Assembly: GCA_964573185.1 (NCBI GenBank)
Contig: CAZNIQ010000005.1
Coordinates: forward strand, 439 to 32,438
Reading direction: 5' to 3'
From: Candidatus Woesearchaeota archaeon
Lineage (GTDB): Archaea; Nanobdellota; Nanobdellia; Nanobdellales; CAZNIQ01
Length of the DNA: 32,000 nt
Under the pieces are notes generated by a model. The model had not been told where the DNA came from. It was given only the letters and a program-made list of their open reading frames with translations, and searched no databases. Made by a program: the position numbers and the translations under genes. Of the stretch, positions 13,276 to 31,722 are shown piece by piece (within the stretch, counting starts at the first letter, position 1; every line of letters starts with the position of its first letter).

Positions 13276-13726
13276 ATTTTAAAGCTAAAGAAAGTAAAGC
13301 TATAGAGGTTCCTAATAAAGCTAAATCGTAAGCCCCAATTCCTACTGCCATTCCAATTGCTGCTGTAATCCATAGAGAAGCTGCAGTAGTGAGACCGATA
13401 ACTTTATGCTCTTCTTTTAGAATAGCTCCTCCTCCAATAAAACCTATGCCAGCTAAAATATAAGCTGCGATCCTTGCTGGGTCTGCACCAATTTTTCCAA
13501 AGTATTCATAAGAAATAAGAGTAAAAATGGTAGTACCTACACCAACTAGAATGTGTGTTCTTAATCCAGCAGGTTTTTTATGTATCTCTCTTTCTAAACC
13601 TAAGAGAAAAGAGAATAGAAAAGATAAAACTAGCTTAATAAAATGTTCTGGATTAAAGAAGAAAAAGAAGTAAATTAATAAAAGAAGAATGCTGATAAAC
13701 ATTGATAGTTGATCAGCATTCATCAT
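13259..13726 (-). CDS. mgtC: MgtC/SapB-family membrane protein
   Basis: LLGLEREIHKKPAGLRTHILVGVG is the MgtC family signature, with 4-5 TM helices. The start is ATG 13726 or ATG 13702. Either way it lies directly downstream of the 5S rRNA 3' end (13731). Confidence 0.85.
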   Translation of the reverse strand: MMNADQLSMFISILLLLIYFFFFFNPEHFIKLVLSFLFSFLLGLEREIHKKPAGLRTHILVGVGTTIFTLISYEYFGKIGADPARIAAYILAGIGFIGGGAILKEEHKVIGLTTAASLWITAAIGMAVGIGAYDLALLGTSIALLSLALKYVEKS

Positions 13727-13730
13727 GATT

Positions 13731-13861
13731 GGCGGGCGGACGGCTTCCGCCGATTCCCGGCGGCCTGCGCCGCCAGTACTACGGCGGACGTGGCCCGGCT
13801 TAACTTCCGTGTTCGAAATGGGAACGGGTGTTTCCCGGGCACTTTGGCCGTCCTACCCGCC
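13731..13861 (-). rRNA. rrf: 5S ribosomal RNA (orphan, not linked to 16S/23S in this window)
   Basis: GC-rich island. The reverse complement reads GGCGGGTAGGACGGCCAAAGTGCCCGGGAAACACCCGTTCCCATTTCGAACACGGAAGTTAAGCCGGGCCACGTCCGCCGTAGTACTGGCGG...GCCGTCCGCCCGCC. It contains the universal CCCATTTCGAACACGGAAGTTAAGCC loop and GTACTGG, and the termini pair into a long helix I. Confidence 0.9.
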
Positions 13862-15909: not shown

Positions 15910-17403
15910 ATGCAAAAGTTTGTTCAAGAAACCTTAAAGGAGATTAGAGAAATTCATATTCTTCTATATAAGCTCAAATTAATTAGAGAAAAAGAAAAAA
16001 AACTGAAAGAAGAACTTAAAGAGATAGAAATTTTGTTTAAAAGAGGTCTAATTGGAGATAAGACATATAATAAATTAAAAAATGAAATTGAGGAAGAAGT
16101 AAGGAAAATAGATGATAAAAAATATTATATTATAAATAGAATTTTACAGATAATTGATGATATTGATAATAGAATAAAATTCTTGCTCGAGACTCGAGAA
16201 ATATCAAAAGATAAATGGATAAAAGAAAAGATAGATAAAACATTAGAAATCATTCATAGAGAGATTAAAAAAGAAAATATATCCAAGCCTGTAGTTCAAA
16301 GAATAAAAGAACTAAAGTATAGTATTCCTAGAGTTCAAATAAATATTCGACCAAAGATAGCAAAAGGTAAAATAGAAATAGAAAAGAGAAAACCAAAGCT
16401 TTCTAGAGTTGCAGTAAGATTATACCAAGAATTAAAGAGAAGAAAAGAGGAAAGGAAAAATGTTTTGAAAAGAAAGGTTATTATTGTTCATAAAACTAAA
16501 AAGCATAGTACTATTAATATATTTGAAAAAATAGCAAATAAGTATTTTGGCGGTCTCGCTGATTTCATTATAAAAAACTTTCCGGATTTATATGCTAAAT
16601 TCTATGAAGTTTTAAGGAGATCTGGAATTAAAACTTTATCCAAGACATATTTTGCATTAATGTTGTTCCTAACAATTATTGTTTTTATTTTCTCTTTAGT
16701 AATTGATCTAATACTACATATATTTGTATTCAAATCTTTCAATCCTCTTTCCTTCTTCATTTTTCTTATATTAATAACTTTGTTTTCAATTCCTTTAACT
16801 ATTGCTATATTTTTGATTTATCCTTACATCAAAGAGAAAGAGAGAAGAGAAAATATAGATGCTGCTTTACCTTTTGCTCTAGTTCAGATGTCTGCTATAG
16901 CGTCAGCAAACGTTTCCCCATATGTAATGATAAAAGTTATTGCAAATACTGAAGAATTCAAAGATCTTTCAGATGAGTTAAAGAAAGTCATAGAATATAT
17001 TGATTATATGGGTTATGATCTTACTACTGCTTTAAGAATGGTTGCAGAGGAGACTCCCTCATATAAATTAAAAGATTTTCTAAAGGGTCTAGCATCTATT
17101 ATAAAATCCGGTGGAAATGTTGCGGAATATATTAAAGAGAAAGCATTAGATGCCTTAATACATTATAGAACTGAAAGAAAGAAATTTATACAAGCTTTAC
17201 AAACTTATTCTGATTTATACACCGGTATAGTTGTTGCTGCTCCTTTATTTTTCATAGCTACATTAGCAGTTTTACAAACAATGGGTGGAAAAGTTTTTAA
17301 CATAGATATCTCAAAGGCAATTTTCTTCGGAACATATGTTTTTATACCCTTAATTAACATTTTGTTTTTGCTATTTATTCATATAACCCAGCCAAAAGGT
17401 TAA
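15910..17403 (+). CDS. Half-size FlaJ/TadC-like platform protein with ~200-aa N-terminal K/E-rich coiled-coil extension
   Basis: The C-terminal ~290 aa have TM helices, one T2SSF-like domain (ALPFALVQMSAIASANVSP...GYDLTTALRMVAEETPSYKLKDFLKGLASIIKSGGN) and more TM helices. The N-terminal 200 aa are charged heptad repeats. Confidence 0.6.
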   Translation: MQKFVQETLKEIREIHILLYKLKLIREKEKKLKEELKEIEILFKRGLIGDKTYNKLKNEIEEEVRKIDDKKYYIINRILQIIDDIDNRIKFLLETREISKDKWIKEKIDKTLEIIHREIKKENISKPVVQRIKELKYSIPRVQINIRPKIAKGKIEIEKRKPKLSRVAVRLYQELKRRKEERKNVLKRKVIIVHKTKKHSTINIFEKIANKYFGGLADFIIKNFPDLYAKFYEVLRRSGIKTLSKTYFALMLFLTIIVFIFSLVIDLILHIFVFKSFNPLSFFIFLILITLFSIPLTIAIFLIYPYIKEKERRENIDAALPFALVQMSAIASANVSPYVMIKVIANTEEFKDLSDELKKVIEYIDYMGYDLTTALRMVAEETPSYKLKDFLKGLASIIKSGGNVAEYIKEKALDALIHYRTERKKFIQALQTYSDLYTGIVVAAPLFFIATLAVLQTMGGKVFNIDISKAIFFGTYVFIPLINILFLLFIHITQPKG

Positions 17404-17636
17404 ACTGAACGAGCAGAAAACAAAACTATTGCCAATCCTGCTAAGAATATAATAATTGCAGAGTAGCTTTCTTTTAAGAACATCTTAATTTGCCAATACG
17501 TTTCAAATGACACTCCAAATAAAGACAAAATCCTATAGAAAGTATAAGAGTTTGTAAAAGTATCAATAAGTAGAATAATCCCAAGAATTAACAAAATAAT
17601 CCCTAGGAATCTTATGGGATCTGTAAATGAGCGCAT
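17400..17636 (-). CDS. Possible small membrane protein (78 aa); doubtful
   Basis: Two or three hydrophobic helices. The only ATG (17636-17634) shares its A with the discriminator base of tRNA-Gly, and the tracked upstream extension is antisense-free tRNA sequence. It may not be a real gene. Confidence 0.3.
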   Translation of the reverse strand: MRSFTDPIRFLGIILLILGIILLIDTFTNSYTFYRILSLFGVSFETYWQIKMFLKESYSAIIIFLAGLAIVLFSARSV

Positions 17637-17706
17637 GCGGCGGCCGGGATTCGAACCCGGGTCACGGGCTTGGAAGGCCCGCATCCTGCCGCTAGACTAC
17701 CGCCGC
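17636..17706 (-). tRNA. tRNA-Gly (anticodon UCC), intron-less, CCA not encoded
   Basis: The reverse complement is GCGGCGG-TA-GTCTAGCGGCAGGAT-G-CGGGC-CTTCCAA-GCCCG-TGAC-CCGGG-TTCGAAT-CCCGG-CCGCCGC-A. This gives a 7-bp acceptor stem, 5-bp anticodon stem, TCC anticodon and a TTCGAAT T-loop. Confidence 0.9.
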
Positions 17707-18061: not shown

Positions 18062-21000
18062 ATGCCAAGTGATGATAAGAAGAAACCGGAAATAAGATTA
18101 AAGGTTGCAGAAGCTAGGCAAGAAGATGTTTACAAGGGTATAGTTCGTATAGATGCTGAAGCCATGAGAAAAATAGGAGTAAAACCCGGGGATGTAGTTG
18201 AAATAGAAGGAAAAAGAAAAACAGTAGCCATTGCTGAAAGATCATATCCTGAAGACGTAGGATTAGGAATAATAAGAATGGATGGTATTCTAAGAAGAAA
18301 TGCAGGTGTTTCTTTAGGTGAATATGTAACTGTAAGGAAAGCTGATGTTAAAGAAGCTAGAAGAGTTGTAATTGCTCCCGCACAAAAAGGCGTTTATGTC
18401 GAAATTCCACCGGAAATGGCAAAGCAAGCTTTACTTGGAAGGCCTCTAATGAAAGGAGATTTAATTGTTCTAGGGGGATACAGAAGAAGGAGGAGATATT
18501 CTTCAGATTTCTTTGAAGATATATTTTCTGTATTTGAAGAACCTTTCTTTACCGGTTTTGCTGAAACTAAATTCATAGTTGTAGATACACAACCTAGAGG
18601 ACCTGTAATTGTAACAGATATGACAGAAGTAGAAGTATTGCCACAAGCCGTTGAAGTTAAAGAGGAAATTCCAGAGGTTACTTGGGAAGATATTGGTGAT
18701 ATGGAAGAAGTTGTGAGGAAAGTTAGAGAATTAGTTGAGTTGCCTTTGAAACATCCCGAAATCTTTGAAAGGTTGGGAATTGAACCTCCAAAAGGGATAT
18801 TGCTATATGGTCCTCCGGGTACTGGTAAAACACTCCTAGCCAAAGCCGTTGCAAATGAAACAGGGGCCTACTTTATTGCCATTAATGGACCAGAGATAGT
18901 TTCAAAGTATGTCGGTGAATCCGAAAGAAGATTAAGAGAAATATTTGAAGAAGCTCAAAAGAATGCTCCTGCGATTATATTTATAGATGAAATCGACGCT
19001 ATAGCTCCAAGAAGAGATGAAGCTGTTGGTGAAGTAGAAAGAAGATTAGTTGCACAGCTTTTAACCTTAATGGATGGTTTAAAATCTAGAGGAAAAGTTA
19101 TAGTTATAGCAGCAACGAACAGGCCTAATGCAATAGATCCTGCATTAAGAAGACCCGGAAGATTTGATAGAGAAATAGAAGTTCCCGTACCAGATGAAAG
19201 AGCCAGATACGAAATACTAAAAGTTCATACAAGAAATGTTCCCTTAGGTAAAAAGATTGTAGAGAAAACACCTGATGGTAAAACAGTAGAAAAGTATGTA
19301 TTGTTAACTCCAGAAGAAAGAGATCAATTGTTAAGAAAATTAGCAAAGATGACCCACGGTTACGTAGGTGCAGATCTAGCTGCTTTAGTTAAAGAGGCTG
19401 CAATGAATGCTATTAGAAGAGTATTACCAGATATACTTGAAAGAGAAGAAGGGCCATTACCTCCAGAAGTACTAGAGAAGTTAGTAGTTACTGAAGAAGA
19501 CTTTATGGAAGCTTTGAAAGTGGTACCTCCATCTGCAATGAGAGAAGTTTTAGTAGAGGTACCTAACGTTAGATGGGATGATATTGGAGGATTAGATGAG
19601 GTTAAACAGATGTTAAAGGAAATGGTTGTTTGGCCTTTGAAATATAGAGAGATATACAAGAAATTGGGAATTGAACCTCCAAAAGGGATATTGCTATATG
19701 GTCCTCCGGGTACTGGTAAGACTTTGTTAGCAAAGGCGGTGGCTACAGAATCTGGAATGAACTTTATAGCAGTAAAAGGTCCAGAAATTTTATCGAAGTG
19801 GGTAGGTGAGTCAATTCCCGGAGATGAGAAAGTTTTAGCAAAGATAGATGGAGAAGTAAAACTAATTGAAGTAGAAAAGTTATATGAAGAATGGTTAAGA
19901 GGAAAAGAAATAGAAGTAGTATCTGTTGTCGATGGAAAAGTAAGATGGTCTAAGATAGAAAAGATTTCAAGACATCTAAGAACTTCACCAGTAGTTGAGA
20001 TAATTACAGAATCTGGAAGAAGAGTTAAGGTTACTTTAGATCATTCTGTATTCACTGTTAAAGATGGAAGAATAATTTCGGTTCCTACTTCAGAATTAAA
20101 GGAAGGCGATTGGATTGTCTTAATAAATAGAATACCGTCTGGAGATAAAGAAGAAATAGCGGGGATAAAAATAAATGAAAATATTGCAGAACTAATAGGT
20201 TTATATATAGCTGAAGGAGATATAAATAAAGACTATGTAAGGATTCATACGAAAGATTCTGAAATAATAAAAGAAATAGAAAGGATAATAAAAGAGGAAA
20301 AGCTTGAAGGAAAGTATTATGAAAAAGATGGTTCATTCTGGATAAAGACGAAATGGTTCGTAGAATTATGCAAATTATTCGGAGTAGGAGCTAAAAACAA
20401 AAGATTAGGACCTGCTCTATCTTTAAAGAAAGAATTATTAGCTAAAGTGTTGAAAGGATACTTTTCTGGAGATGGAACATTCTACTTAAAGAACCATAAA
20501 AGATCTGGAACAATAGAGGCAGTAACTGTAAGTAAAACTTTAGCTGAAGAATTATTAATAGCTCTATCAATGTTTGGTATATTTGCAAGGATAAAAGAAA
20601 GGGTAAATAGAGTAGGAAACATTGAATATAGGATTCTAATTGGAAGGACAGAACAATTCAAGATTTTCTTAGAAGAAATAAGATTTATACAGGAAGGAAA
20701 GAATAGAAAGCTTAAAGAATTTATAAAGAGTAGGAAATGGACGAGAGGCAAAAGAAATATACCAGCAGAACTAGTAGGAAAGTTGTATGCTGATATGGAG
20801 GTAGAATATTATTCTGATAGGGTTGTTCAGAAAGCATTAAAGAAAGTATTGCTAGAAGATTTGTACTTCGATAAAATAAAGGAAATAAGAGTCCTAGAGA
20901 GGGATGATATGTATGTTTATGATGTTGTTGAAGTAAAGGAGGGGCATAATTTTGTAGGAGGACAAGGTTTCTTATTGCATAACTCTGAAAAAGCTATTAG

Positions 21001-21826
21001 AGAAATATTTAGGAAGGCTAGACAAGTAGCACCATGTGTTATTTTCTTTGATGAAATAGATGCTATTGCTGCTAGAAGAGGCTCTGAAACTTCAGGAGTC
21101 ATAGATAGAATTGTAAACCAGTTATTAACAGAAATGGACGGTATTACTACAAGAGGGGATGTTGTTGTAATAGCAGCAACTAATAGACCCGATCTGATAG
21201 ATCCTGCTTTATTAAGACCCGGAAGATTTGATAGATTAGTTTATGTCCCACCACCAGATAAGAAAGCTAGAATCGAGATACTAGCAATACATACTAGGAA
21301 CACACCACTAGATCCTGAATTTGACAAGAACTTAGAAACTCTAAAGAAGAAATTAGAGGAAATTAAGAATAACGAGGAAATGTTAAAGTTCTATAAGGTA
21401 TCAAAGGAAGACGTAGAGAAATGGCTAAGAGAGTTAACAGATGCGAAGAAAGCTTATGAATTGTACGAGAAAGATAAGAAATTTAGATATGTTGCTAATG
21501 CTTTGTTGATCTTTGAACCTATTGCAGAAAAGACCGAAATGTACTCCGGTGCTGATCTAGCAGCACTTGCAAGGGAAGCAGCATTAACAGCATTGAGGGA
21601 AAGATTAGAGTACTATAGAAACCAAGGTTTATCCGAAGATGAGGCATTAGCAAAAATAAAAGACGAGCAAATAAAAGTAAAGTTAGAACACTTTGAGAAA
21701 GCATTACAAAAAGTAAAACCATCTATTACAAAAGAAATGCTCGAATATTATAAAGCTTTTACAGAATATATGAAAGGAACGTTTAGGAAGGAAGAAAAAA
21801 GAGACAAAAGATCTTACCTACTTTAA
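18062..21826 (+). CDS. cdc48: Cdc48/VCP-type AAA+ ATPase (N domain + D1 + D2) carrying an intein in D2
   Basis: N domain ([20 protein letters not shown]). Two AAA modules, each with [20 protein letters not shown] and IIFIDEID / [11 protein letters not shown] with [17 protein letters not shown]. The D2 helix after Walker A is interrupted (WVGE|S...HN|SEKAIREIF, compare D1 [13 protein letters not shown]). Confidence 0.95.
18773..18828 (+). repeat. 56-nt perfect intragenic repeat, copy 1 (D1 Walker A region of cdc48)
   Basis: ttgggaattgaacctccaaaagggatattgctatatggtcctccgggtactggtaa is identical base for base to 19664-19719. Confidence 0.95.
19664..19719 (+). repeat. 56-nt perfect intragenic repeat, copy 2 (D2 Walker A region of cdc48)
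   Basis: Identical to 18773-18828. It ends 92 nt upstream of the intein insertion point. Confidence 0.95.
19811..20983 (+). mobile_element. Full-length intein (391 aa) with LAGLIDADG homing-endonuclease domain, Ser1 / Ser+1
   Basis: Block A is [14 protein letters not shown] (Ser1 codon 19811-19813) and block B is [10 protein letters not shown]. The LAGLIDADG motifs are [10 protein letters not shown] and [10 protein letters not shown]. Block F is [16 protein letters not shown], and the terminal LLHN (Asn 20981-20983) is followed by Ser. Excision restores [13 protein letters not shown], matching D1. Confidence 0.9.
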
Positions 21827-22132: not shown

Positions 22133-23023
22133 TTAATCCTCTTCGGGGAACACGTAAACTCTATCTGAAATTAAAACGGTTTTTTCATGTTGGGACACTA
22201 AGCCTCCTGACTTTTCAACAAGTATAGGATATTCATAAAGAATATCTAACTTTTTCATCAAATTAATAGCATAATCTACCTGATTTTTTGGAAAAATTTT
22301 GTATAACCATCTTTTTGCAAATGGTAAAGTCTTGTATTCTTTTATTATATAATCATAAATTTTTCTAGCAATTCTATCTCTTGGAGCTTTAAGATCCATT
22401 ATCTTTAGAATTCCAGAAGGATTTCCATCTTTAACATAGCCAATACCATTAGTTGCAAAGGGTTCTATAGCATATAATCCTTCTTCTAATTTTATTTTTG
22501 ATTTATTATTGAAATTTGGTATAGTTAAACCTGCATGTAAATTATATTGTTCTATTTGATGTCCCGAAAGATTATATATTGGGTTTAAATTATATTTTTT
22601 TATAGTTCTCTCAATAACGTCTCCAATTGCCCACAATTCTACTCCTTTTTTTATTACTTTCAATGCATTTTCCAATGCTTCTTTTGACGCTTTTATTAAT
22701 CCTTTATGATCCCCCAAATCTATAGTTATAGCTGTATCAATGATCCAACCATTTATATGAACTCCTATATCAATTTTAACAACATCTCCTTCTTTAAATG
22801 CTGATTTATCATCAATACTTGGTGTATAATGCGCAGCAATATCATTTATTGATATATTTACTGGAAAAGCAGGTTTACCTCCTTCTTCAATTATAAGTCC
22901 CTCTATTTTTTCAGCAACCTCTAATAAAGATACTTCAGGTCTAACTAGCTTTTTAGCTAAATTTAAAGCTTTAGCAGCTATTTTTGATGCTTTTTTTAAA
23001 TCAGCTAGGGTGACTCTCTTCAT
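22133..23023 (-). CDS. map: Methionine aminopeptidase, type 2 (archaeal)
   Basis: AAHYTPS, DVVKIDIGVHINGWIIDTA, LSGHQIEQY and SQHEKTVLI are the metal-ligand motifs of the pita-bread fold. Its 296 aa is typical of archaeal MetAP2. Confidence 0.9.
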   Translation of the reverse strand: MKRVTLADLKKASKIAAKALNLAKKLVRPEVSLLEVAEKIEGLIIEEGGKPAFPVNISINDIAAHYTPSIDDKSAFKEGDVVKIDIGVHINGWIIDTAITIDLGDHKGLIKASKEALENALKVIKKGVELWAIGDVIERTIKKYNLNPIYNLSGHQIEQYNLHAGLTIPNFNNKSKIKLEEGLYAIEPFATNGIGYVKDGNPSGILKIMDLKAPRDRIARKIYDYIIKEYKTLPFAKRWLYKIFPKNQVDYAINLMKKLDILYEYPILVEKSGGLVSQHEKTVLISDRVYVFPEED

Positions 23024-23049
23024 TTTTCTGAGCCGGTGGATTTCATCAC
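23001..23049 (-). ncRNA. Candidate C/D-box sRNA embedded across the hypothetical/map gene junction (weak)
   Basis: The minus strand reads GTGATGA-aatccaccggct-CAGA-aaa-ATGAAGA-gagtcaccctag-CTGA. This gives perfect C and D boxes exactly 38 nt apart with two 12-nt spacers, but D' (CAGA) and C' (ATGAAGA) are degenerate and the whole element is coding sequence. Confidence 0.3.
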
Positions 23050-23477: not shown

Positions 23478-23525
23478 ATGATGACACCACCCGTGACTGA
23501 AGATGATGATATGGGCATTTGCTGA
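23478..23525 (+). ncRNA. C/D-box sRNA (2'-O-methylation guide)
   Basis: ATGATGA(23478-84)-caccacccgtga-CTGA(23497-500)-ag-ATGATGA(23503-09)-tatgggcatttg-CTGA(23522-25). All four boxes are perfect, both guides are 12 nt, and it sits in a 107-nt divergent intergenic spacer with tttatatt about 20 nt upstream. Confidence 0.85.
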
Positions 23526-29955: not shown

Positions 29956-30442
29956 AACCTTCATATTTTTGATACTTCTGATTATTTTTATACTTTATAT
30001 AGTCTTTAAACCGAAAATTATTGAAAATAGATATTTTAAGATAGTTTATGGGAAAAATGATTTATCTAAATTAGCAAAAGAAAAAAATTGTATTTTTATA
30101 AAGAAATATGATCTCGTGGCTTGTAGCAAAAACAACCAAACAATATATTACTTTAAAGACCGTACGATGTATATTAAAAACTTTCCAGAAATACCAGATA
30201 ACATAGAAAAAGTATTAATTAAATATGGAAAAATTTTATTTGCTTACAAAGAATGGGCAAGTACTATAAAGATCAAATATCTAAACTTAAACAAAACTGC
30301 TATATTAAAAAAGATGGCTTTGGATATAATCGATATAAACAAGATGAAAAATTGTACTGTAATAATAGTATCTTTAAAAGAAAAATATGGAAAGCTTTTA
30401 GAGATAAATGAATGCAATAAAACCTTAACTTTAGTAACTTAA
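29936..30442 (+). CDS. Hypothetical N-terminally anchored protein (GTG start)
   Basis: Signal-anchor TFIFLILLIIFILYIVF, and no in-frame ATG before residue 78. Overlaps the previous gene by 20 nt. Confidence 0.4.
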   Translation: MSKLSPKTFIFLILLIIFILYIVFKPKIIENRYFKIVYGKNDLSKLAKEKNCIFIKKYDLVACSKNNQTIYYFKDRTMYIKNFPEIPDNIEKVLIKYGKILFAYKEWASTIKIKYLNLNKTAILKKMALDIIDINKMKNCTVIIVSLKEKYGKLLEINECNKTLTLVT

Positions 30443-30736
30443 CTCCTCAAGTAGCTCTATCAAGGTTCTAATCTGTTCTCTTGTTAGATATCTTATTTTT
30501 ACATCTTCTTTTACCTCAAATATTATTCTTTCTATTGGTGATTCATCAGAAAATTTTGCTTTTAAAATATAGGACTCTCCTTCCATAGCTATCTCTATTC
30601 TTATTGGTCTGTACTTTTGCAGAATTTCATAAACTTTTTTATCCAATTTTTCTTTAGAATATTCTACTAACGCTCTATAGACATTAAATAACGCTTCAGC
30701 AGAGGTCTTAAGTATATATTTTATATCTTCTGACAT
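30431..30736 (-). CDS. Hypothetical protein (101 aa)
   Basis: A clean ORF with no recognised family. Confidence 0.45.
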   Translation of the reverse strand: MSEDIKYILKTSAEALFNVYRALVEYSKEKLDKKVYEILQKYRPIRIEIAMEGESYILKAKFSDESPIERIIFEVKEDVKIRYLTREQIRTLIELLEELSY

Positions 30737-30769: not shown

Positions 30770-30817
30770 TCAGAACGCTTGCCCATCATCATTCTCAGAT
30801 AGGACGGCCTTCATCAT
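30770..30817 (-). ncRNA. C/D-box sRNA whose D' guide is complementary to the 5S rRNA of this window
   Basis: The minus strand reads ATGATGA(30817-11)-aggccgtcctat-CTGA(30798-95)-ga-ATGATGA(30792-86)-tgggcaagcgtt-CTGA(30773-70). Its architecture is identical to the sRNA at 23478. The guide core ggccgtccta equals plus-strand 13846-13855, so it is antisense to the 5S RNA. Confidence 0.85.
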
Positions 30818-30846
30818 TAAAAATAGTTTTGAATTAAAGATAAAAT

Positions 30847-31722
30847 ATGTTTGGAGATGTTAAATCCGTCGCAGTAGTTGGTGCGTCCCCAAAAGAAGGA
30901 AAAGCTGGAAATATAATTCTAAAAAATTTCATTAAGAGATTTAAAGGAAAAATTTTTGCGGTAAATCCAAAGTATAAAGAGGTTTTAGGCGTCCCTTGTT
31001 TTCCTACAGTTAAAGACATATCTGAAGATATTGATTTAGTTGTAATAGCAGTTCCTGCTGAGAAAGTACCAAAAGTAGTAAAAGATGCTTCTGAAAAAGG
31101 AGTTAAGTATGCTATTATAATTTCTGCTGGATTCTCAGAAGTAGGAAGAAAGGATTTAGAGGAAGAAATATTAAAATATAAGGGAGATATGAAAATTATT
31201 GGACCTAATGGTTTAGGGGTTTACGATCCTTATTCTGGTATAGATACTTTCTTTATAGAGGAATCAAGAGTTCCAAGACCACCTAAAGGAAATATAGCAA
31301 TATTATCTCAATCAGGTGCTATAGCTTTAGCATTAATGGAATGGCTGGCTTTACATAACATTGGAGTATCAATTATAGTTTCTTATGGCAATAAAATAGA
31401 TTTAGATGAAGTAGATTTCCTTAAGATGTTAAAAGAAGATAAAAATACTAAGTATATTTTCATGTATCTTGAAGGCTTGAAGCCTGGGAGGGGGAAAGAA
31501 TTTATTAAAATTGCTAAAGAATTGTATAAAGAAGGTAAAAGGATTATAGCTTTAAAGGCCGGAAAATCTAGAAGAGGAAAAGTTGCAGTTAGTTCTCATA
31601 CGGCGTCTATGGCAGGAGAATATGAAGTTTATAAGTTTGCTTTTAAACAAGCTCATATAATTGAAGCTAAAAACATGGAAGAGATGTTGATTTATTTAAA
31701 GACTTTGAGTTACTTCGGATAA
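30847..31722 (+). CDS. ADP-forming acyl/acetyl-CoA synthetase alpha-type protein, short form (CoA-binding + CoA-ligase domains only)
   Basis: VAVVGASPKEGKAGN, VNPKY..VLG..CF, DLVVIAVPAEKV, IIISAGFSE, IGPNGLG, and phosphohistidine loop SSHTASMAG. It stops at 291 aa, whereas ACD alpha subunits as I recall them are about 460 aa. Confidence 0.75.
   Translation: MFGDVKSVAVVGASPKEGKAGNIILKNFIKRFKGKIFAVNPKYKEVLGVPCFPTVKDISEDIDLVVIAVPAEKVPKVVKDASEKGVKYAIIISAGFSEVGRKDLEEEILKYKGDMKIIGPNGLGVYDPYSGIDTFFIEESRVPRPPKGNIAILSQSGAIALALMEWLALHNIGVSIIVSYGNKIDLDEVDFLKMLKEDKNTKYIFMYLEGLKPGRGKEFIKIAKELYKEGKRIIALKAGKSRRGKVAVSSHTASMAGEYEVYKFAFKQAHIIEAKNMEEMLIYLKTLSYFG

Follow-up and report, generated by a model that had tools for sequence, protein, structure and literature searches.

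A 48-nt element on the minus strand of the DNA analyzed here, a stretch of 32,000 nucleotides that we call the window, is very probably a genuine box C/D sRNA, and nt 2-11 of its D' guide are exactly complementary to the 5' strand of helix I of the 5S rRNA encoded in the same window. Another C/D sRNA in a hyperthermophile is routine; the 5S target is the less routine part. Such a target is plausible for this sRNA, if unusual, and what is unusual is the candidate substrate, not the mechanism. From the sequence evidence, the chances that 5S is a genuine target of the D' guide, with or without helix 95 of the 23S rRNA, appear evenly balanced.

A C/D element had been placed at 30770-30817 by the sequence-only reading. 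Direct read-out of the DNA confirmed both its coordinates and its sequence and assigned it to the minus strand. There, 30817-30770 reads AUGAUGA-AGGCCGUCCUAU-CUGA-GA-AUGAUGA-UGGGCAAGCGUU-CUGA, and the same element was found with a regular expression. Its parts, its neighbors, the 5S rRNA gene, and the two other sRNAs of the window are collected in Table 1.

Table 1. Coordinates of the candidate sRNA, its surroundings, its proposed target, and the other sRNAs of the window
Feature	Position	Strand	Basis or remark
Box C/D sRNA core, 48 nt	30770..30817	-	Direct read and regex scan
C box AUGAUGA	30811..30817	-	Regex; box positions invariant in 12/12 clade sRNAs
D' guide AGGCCGUCCUAU, 12 nt; nt 2-11 are GGCCGUCCUA, the complement of 5S UAGGACGGCC	30799..30810	-	Sequence
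D' box CUGA	30795..30798	-	Read from sequence, regex
Spacer GA, 2 nt, between D' and C'	30793-30794	-	Sequence
C' box AUGAUGA	30786..30792	-	Regex, clade alignment of 12 sRNAs
D guide UGGGCAAGCGUU, 12 nt, orphan	30774..30785	-	Sequence
D box CUGA, followed by AAAAACUUUU	30770..30773	-	Sequence
TATA-like element ATATTTTATC, putative sRNA promoter	30838..30847	-	Inspection of sequence
ORF of 101 aa, no assigned function	30431-30736	-	Flanks sRNA
CoA-binding domain gene of split ADP-forming acetyl-CoA synthetase	30847-31722	+	Flanks sRNA
5S rRNA gene with extended helix I	13731..13861	-	Rfam core 13735-13855, flanks, fold
Proposed D' target UAGGACGGCC, 5' strand of 5S helix I; predicted 2'-O-methylated G at 13852	13846..13855	-	Complementarity
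Second perfect C/D sRNA, 48 nt, guides CACCACCCGUGA and UAUGGGCAUUUG	23478-23525	+	Strict regex
Third C/D sRNA GUGAUGA-AAUCCACCGGCU-CAGA-AAA-AUGAAGA-GAGUCACCCUAG-CUGA	23001-23049	-	Relaxed regex

By all structural features compared, the candidate belongs to the archaeal box C/D sRNAs; four perfect boxes, 12-nt spacers, and the score against a model of the clade make a strong case for it. The RUGAUGA that the class carries at its 5' end is present as AUGAUGA (30817-30811), and the CUGA of the 3' end lies at 30773-30770. D' and C' are joined by a short loop (CUGA-GA-AUGAUGA), which measures 2-4 nt in the other 11 sRNAs of the clade, and the two spacers, which are about 12 nt in this class, are 12 nt each. 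Searching both strands of the window (64 kb) with a strict C/D'/C'/D pattern gave two matches, and a relaxed pattern added one; the RTGATGA motif occurs 10 times on these strands. Box positions are invariant in an alignment of 12 clade sRNAs, three from the window and nine from a close relative. From these 12 sequences, a covariance model (R1) was built. It scored the candidate at 40.9 bits (E 9e-12), with the candidate itself in the training set, and on the window only the three window sRNAs rose above noise.

The candidate shares with known archaeal C/D sRNAs (the 26 of N. equitans, Randau 2012, PMC3491384; RF00095; the sR families) all four boxes, the 12-nt spacers, a very short D'-C' loop, a size of about 50 nt without a long terminal stem, and a short intergenic location beside promoters. 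The density of sRNAs in its clade, about one per 6 kb, is also like that of known archaeal C/D sRNAs. It differs from them in its guides: they match 0/26 of the N. equitans sRNAs, and among 489 compiled sRNAs the only resemblance, a loose one, is to the D guide of P. calidifontis sR39. A further difference is that its best visible target is 5S, versus 16S, 23S, or tRNA for known archaeal C/D sRNAs.

No Rfam family matches the candidate sRNA at the gathering threshold. This result would fit an element that is no RNA gene at all, only a chance cluster of short motifs in an AT-rich intergenic region, a reading that we hold to be highly improbable. A score below gathering is expected, because guides vary in such a family. 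Under relaxed settings, the best match was snoPyro_CD (RF00095), a generic Pyrococcus family, which aligned over the full length with 30 bits (E 1.4e-4; gathering score 45) and with a 3-bp UUU/AAA terminal stem included in the alignment. The significant sub-threshold matches on the candidate's strand were all archaeal or eukaryotic C/D families. Against a chance cluster stand the four perfect boxes at exact 12-nt spacing, in a pattern that occurs only twice in 64 kb where RTGATGA itself occurs only 10 times, together with the score against the clade model and the conservation of sibling sRNAs in the relative. The GC content also speaks against it: the sRNA segment, although intergenic, has 41% GC in a genome of about 30% GC with GC-rich RNA genes. 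Among the proteins of a C/D RNP, a Nop5 gene (PF01798) was found on a contig of the close relative, and Nop5, L7Ae, and fibrillarin genes are absent from the window.

The candidate lies within a 110-nt intergenic region with divergent genes on either side. The TATA-like element ATATTTTATC is located about 21-30 nt upstream of the C box and reaches into the start codon of the CoA-binding gene, which is divergent; a second TATA-like element, CTTTTAAAGA, follows the D box and precedes the ATG of the 101-aa ORF. Because the two elements are placed in this way, we infer from inspection of the sequence that the sRNA forms its own transcription unit. In this window, the split acetyl-CoA synthetase is represented by its CoA-binding part alone, which is followed by an opposite-strand PIN-domain gene, whereas in relatives the Ligase_CoA_2 and ATP-grasp_5 parts directly follow the CoA-binding gene. 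The upstream neighbor of the CoA-binding gene was different in every relative examined, which marks this site as a rearrangement hotspot.

The source organism is an uncultured hydrothermal member of the Nanoarchaeota. The window sequence is 99.8-99.9% identical in hydrothermal metagenomes (ENA ERZ27262635, JGI 3300026488, and Logan runs), and its methionine aminopeptidase (MetAP) shares 58% identity with proteins that bear the names Nanopusillus or Nanobsidianus. The closest relative is a MAG, GCA_054017035.1, with 86% identity in MetAP and 92% in the CoA-binding protein. About 40 kb of this 86% relative yielded nine further sRNAs of the same 48-50 nt architecture. Both other sRNAs of the window have orthologues there, with 11 of 12 positions kept in both guides and a variable D'-C' loop. 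Guide conservation of 11/12 in these siblings shows that C/D sRNAs are a real class in this lineage and are subject to constraint there.

Several observations concern these siblings themselves. The second sRNA (23478-23525) lies upstream of a class V FBP aldolase/phosphatase gene, and its orthologue at L020 8306-8353 (minus strand) of GCA_054017035.1 keeps 11/12 of each guide around a different D'-C' loop. In the third sRNA, the C' box supplies the ATG start of MetAP (22133-23023, minus strand), and the D guide and D box serve as codons 3-8; in the 86% relative, the orthologue (L020 9914-9962) is 38 nt apart from the MetAP start. The D' guide of the third sRNA fits the conserved 23S 5' region CCGGUGGAU. 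The close relative clusters its sRNA genes, with four to six in 2.6 kb (L020 15471-18055). Two of its sRNAs, at L020 16938-16986 (plus strand) and 16982-17029 (minus strand), are encoded on opposite strands with 3' ends that overlap by 5 nt, and a tandem pair lies in L023 18397-18515. In contrast, 21-kb loci of Nanopusillus-like genomes (22-23% GC) contained no sRNAs, nor did the relative with 71% identity in the CoA-binding protein.

The candidate itself was found in its own lineage only. Copies identical to it are limited to assemblies with 99.8-99.9% identity to the window, and at this level of identity strain variation is uninformative about constraint. Beside CoA-binding homologues of 92, 85, 82, and 71% identity, there was no orthologue of the candidate, and the upstream neighbors differed. 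In a scan of JGI metagenomes, the sRNA architecture with the CCGTCC core matched the organism's own contig and, besides it, a single unrelated sRNA of an archaeon with higher GC; a scan of viral contigs for the candidate returned none. Searching genome contigs by MetAP for loci with both the sRNA and 5S recovered only relatives of at most 52% identity. The MetAP loci of the 86% relative, a 773-kb Nanoarchaeota genome, and a Nanopusillus MAG contained neither 5S nor an orthologue of the candidate and keep only MetAP-histone(-CDC48) synteny. An sRNA in L023 upstream of a 100-aa gene was considered as a positional orthologue and was dropped because the two proteins are unrelated. The candidate therefore looks lineage-specific, or at least mobile. 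Within the same neighborhood, the CDC48/VCP ATPase of the window (18062-21826, plus strand, 1254 aa) carries an intein with a LAGLIDADG endonuclease domain, and its orthologue in the 86% relative (L020 11189-13780, 863 aa) is without an intein.

The proposed target is encoded in an isolated 5S rRNA gene (13731-13861, minus strand), with 16S and 23S absent nearby. Rfam assigned RF00001 with 87.7 bits to 13855-13735 of the minus strand. Helix I extends beyond this core: GGCGGGU-A-GGACGGC pairs with GCCGUCC-GCCCGCC in 14 bp with one bulged A, six pairs more than in the Rfam model. With the 131-nt gene and two unpaired 3' A's, the 133-nt stretch 13729-13861 has a folding energy of -79.8 kcal/mol (z = -7.0). 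AT-rich TATA-like elements lie 12-31 nt upstream of 5S, a position that suggests a transcript start at the mature 5' end or close to it. In Sulfolobus and Pyrodictium, the reported 2'-O-methylated positions of 5S lie around C32-C35, not in helix I. Downstream, an MgtC-like ORF starts 5 nt past the 3' end of 5S, and its first letters are ATGATGAATGCTGA (13713-13726, minus strand). This string resembles a C box plus a D box and was set aside as a coincidence rather than an sRNA, with a model score of 6.7 bits.

The D' guide pairs with 5S at 13846-13855 through 10 consecutive Watson-Crick pairs, as had been read from the sequence. Opposite the G at 13852 stands guide nucleotide five, counted upstream from the D' box, in agreement with the earlier N+5 assignment. 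Guide-target pairs are expected to include at least nine consecutive pairs with N+5 among them (PMC4644070); here, there are 10, and N+5 falls on a G-C pair. In solved crystal structures of C/D RNPs, nt 2-11 of the 12-nt spacer pair with the substrate, and nt 1 and 12 do not (PMC9670817). The guide-substrate duplex is limited to 10 bp, and substrates of 9-10 bp are efficiently modified (PMC7229835). The D' guide matches 5S at 10/10 positions in this register. Because its ten matching nucleotides are exactly spacer nt 2-11, the match to 5S is the maximum that the enzyme can use. A terminal G-U at 13856, which the sequence-only reading had added, is possible but irrelevant, as spacer nt 2-11 alone pair. 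That reading had also correctly placed the target on the 5' strand of helix I; with a 14-bp helix I, however, the site corresponds to nt 7-16 of the likely transcript, not to its very 5' end. Along with the bulged A and the U of the G.U pair, the proposed target takes in the seven inner pairs of the helix and reaches the first C of the junction.

Such a match is rare by chance. A 10/10 core match to 5S was reached by 1.7-2.0e-4 of shuffled or composition-matched guides, or about 1e-3 when all six window guides are counted; the earlier estimate of well below 1 percent thus holds in its order of magnitude. For a whole genome, the chance would be about 2-6% if 100-300 guides are present, a number assumed from the density in the clade. 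The longest complement to 5S in any register, compared over 36 real sRNAs (10 from the clade and 26 from N. equitans), is that of the candidate, and the runners-up reach 9 nt (with box nucleotides used), 8 nt, and 7 nt. In the 32-kb window, the 5S site is the only complement of the D' guide with at most two mismatches. One sRNA of the close relative, L023_5734, has a 9-nt 5S complement, AGUUAAGCC; it was rejected, as 2/9 nt lie in the D box and a 23S site fits better. A second site in 5S, for the D guide, was looked for and none was found.

The serious rival to the 5S target is helix 95 of 23S, the stem of the sarcin-ricin loop. A longer or better complement in 16S or 23S would weigh against 5S, and the comparison was made with an alignment of seven archaea including N. 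equitans in the supplement of Dennis et al. 2015 (PMC4644070). Spurious ORFs from N. equitans 23S, used as probes for nanoarchaeal 23S contigs, gave only two unrelated matches. In N. equitans, which serves here as a proxy, helix 95 is GGGGAAGGACGGCCUAGUACGAAAGGAACGGCCGUCC, and nt 1-10 of the D' guide pair contiguously with its AGGACGGCCU. This 10-bp match is as long as that to 5S, but it is not longer, and in the functional register (nt 2-11) it is not better, at 9/10 versus 10/10. The difference lies at A11 of the guide, which faces the second A of GAAGG in helix 95 and the matching U in 5S. GAAGG is common to six of the seven aligned archaea, and the seventh, M. maripaludis, has GAAAGG. The candidate could thus be an ordinary 23S guide whose D' spacer is directed at the 5' strand of helix 95, with the second G of AAGG as the methylated nucleotide, and the same 8-10 nt in 5S helix I would be a coincidence of two GC-rich stems; we consider this unlikely, though it carries real weight. 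The two duplexes have indistinguishable energies (-19.1 versus -18.8 kcal/mol). When 24 clade guides were compared with a 462-nt 3' region of N. equitans 23S, the helix 95 match of the candidate was joint best, equal to or above clade guides that plainly match conserved 23S sites, which score 8-9 in that region. Most archaeal guides target 16S or 23S (PMC4644070), and 23S is a far commoner class of target than 5S. On the other side, the base that misses in helix 95 is the one that suits the U of 5S, the sequence of the helix 95 stem varies between archaeal lineages, and N. equitans is a distant relative. None of 489 sRNAs of seven archaea, N. equitans included, guides against the 5' strand of helix 95, and the prior for this site is lowered accordingly. 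An exact scan of JGI metagenomes, including the organism's own sample, for GGACGGCCU plus the sarcin-ricin loop gave 0 matches. The D guide is without a site in the adjacent ~460 nt. If helix 95 was the selected site, the in-register match to 5S would be a coincidence of about 2e-4; if 5S was selected, the N. equitans match would be a coincidence of about 1-3%, an estimate for the region searched that is higher for the whole rRNA set. By our estimate, the prior strongly favors 23S over 5S, yet too little to overturn this ratio of coincidences. A helix 95 of the form [A/G]UAGGACGGCCU in this organism would favor the 23S target.

It is distinctly unlikely that both matches arose by chance and that the D' guide is an orphan or is aimed at another RNA such as a tRNA, SRP RNA, or RNase P RNA, since two independent 10-pair matches are improbable at the rates given above, about 2e-4 for 5S and, as a rough estimate, 1-3% for the 23S region. 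Nevertheless, in Pyrobaculum, orphans make up about 28% of the guides, and of those sRNAs, a third have tRNA targets (PMC6009581). The comparison with tRNAs of this genome covered one, tRNA-Gly; the sRNA is apparently confined to this lineage; and the first-stage scan that drew attention to the match carries a look-elsewhere factor. The partner guide, D, is an orphan: its target, AACGCUUGCCCA, has no match in 5S, tRNA-Gly, the window, or reference archaeal 16S and 23S, and no exact 7-mer of it occurs in the 16S/23S alignments of seven archaea. As D-guide targets, ACUUGCCCC near helix 98 of E. coli was unhelpful, and an anticodon-loop reading of AACGCUUGCCCA was dropped, as it would place a pyrimidine at position 37. 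The window's tRNA-Gly(UCC) (17636-17706, minus strand) is identical to N. equitans tRNA-Gly(UCC) over the 40 nt printed (PMC3491384), except for the last base. In N. equitans, sRNA3 lies directly downstream of this tRNA; no sRNA follows the tRNA-Gly of the window.

The nearest precedent for a 5S guide comes from Dennis et al. 2015 (PMC4644070), who state that among sRNAs lacking a 16S or 23S target many are complementary to tRNAs or 5S rRNA, for which data were not compiled. The candidate resembles these cases: it is a canonical sRNA whose guide is complementary to 5S, without a demonstrated target in 16S or 23S. The cases themselves were never listed or validated, which leaves no site-by-site comparison with the candidate, and a search of the literature for a documented 5S guide found none beyond this mention. 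Among compiled guides, the D guide of P. calidifontis sR39, CGGCCAUCCUAU (PMC4644070 supplement 1), is identical to the candidate's D' guide at 10/12 positions, including CCUAU next to the box. It comes from another phylum and is combined with a different partner guide, and AUAGGA, its target string, is absent from the compiled 16S/23S alignments; the target of sR39 could be 5S or a tRNA. This resemblance may be fortuitous.

With 5S as the target, the sRNA would be transcribed independently and would assemble with L7Ae, Nop5, and fibrillarin. Nucleotides 2-11 of its D' spacer would pair with the 5' strand of helix I in nascent 5S, at nt 7-16 of the transcript, and fibrillarin, positioned by this pairing, would 2'-O-methylate the G encoded at 13852. 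As the 3' strand of helix I is made about 110 nt later and the guide has to bind before that, the sRNA may also act transiently as a chaperone of 5S folding. The complete form of this proposal is a dedicated, lineage-specific 5S guide that binds co-transcriptionally, methylates G13852, and keeps the strand open for as long as the 3' strand is missing; we advance it tentatively, at slightly short of even chances. In a more exotic version, one guide would serve two ribosomal stems that share GGACGGCC, 5S helix I and 23S helix 95. The look-elsewhere factor of the first-stage scan, the absent conservation, and a possible better target pull the other way. GC-rich stems in the rRNAs of hyperthermophiles can share 8-10 nt by chance, so a guide match to one RNA is not to be read as its target before all stable RNAs of the genome have been checked.

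Herein, an sRNA of the routine C/D class is paired with a substrate for which the literature gives hints of guide-directed methylation (PMC4644070) but no site-by-site documentation. The whole 5S molecule is closed by the helix I duplex. If the proposed pairing is true, it would be the first concrete, testable case of C/D-guided modification of 5S combined with chaperoning. Validation would add to the substrates known for the archaeal methylation machinery and, with an RNA of only about 130 nt and a single guide, would provide a simple system for guides as folding chaperones.
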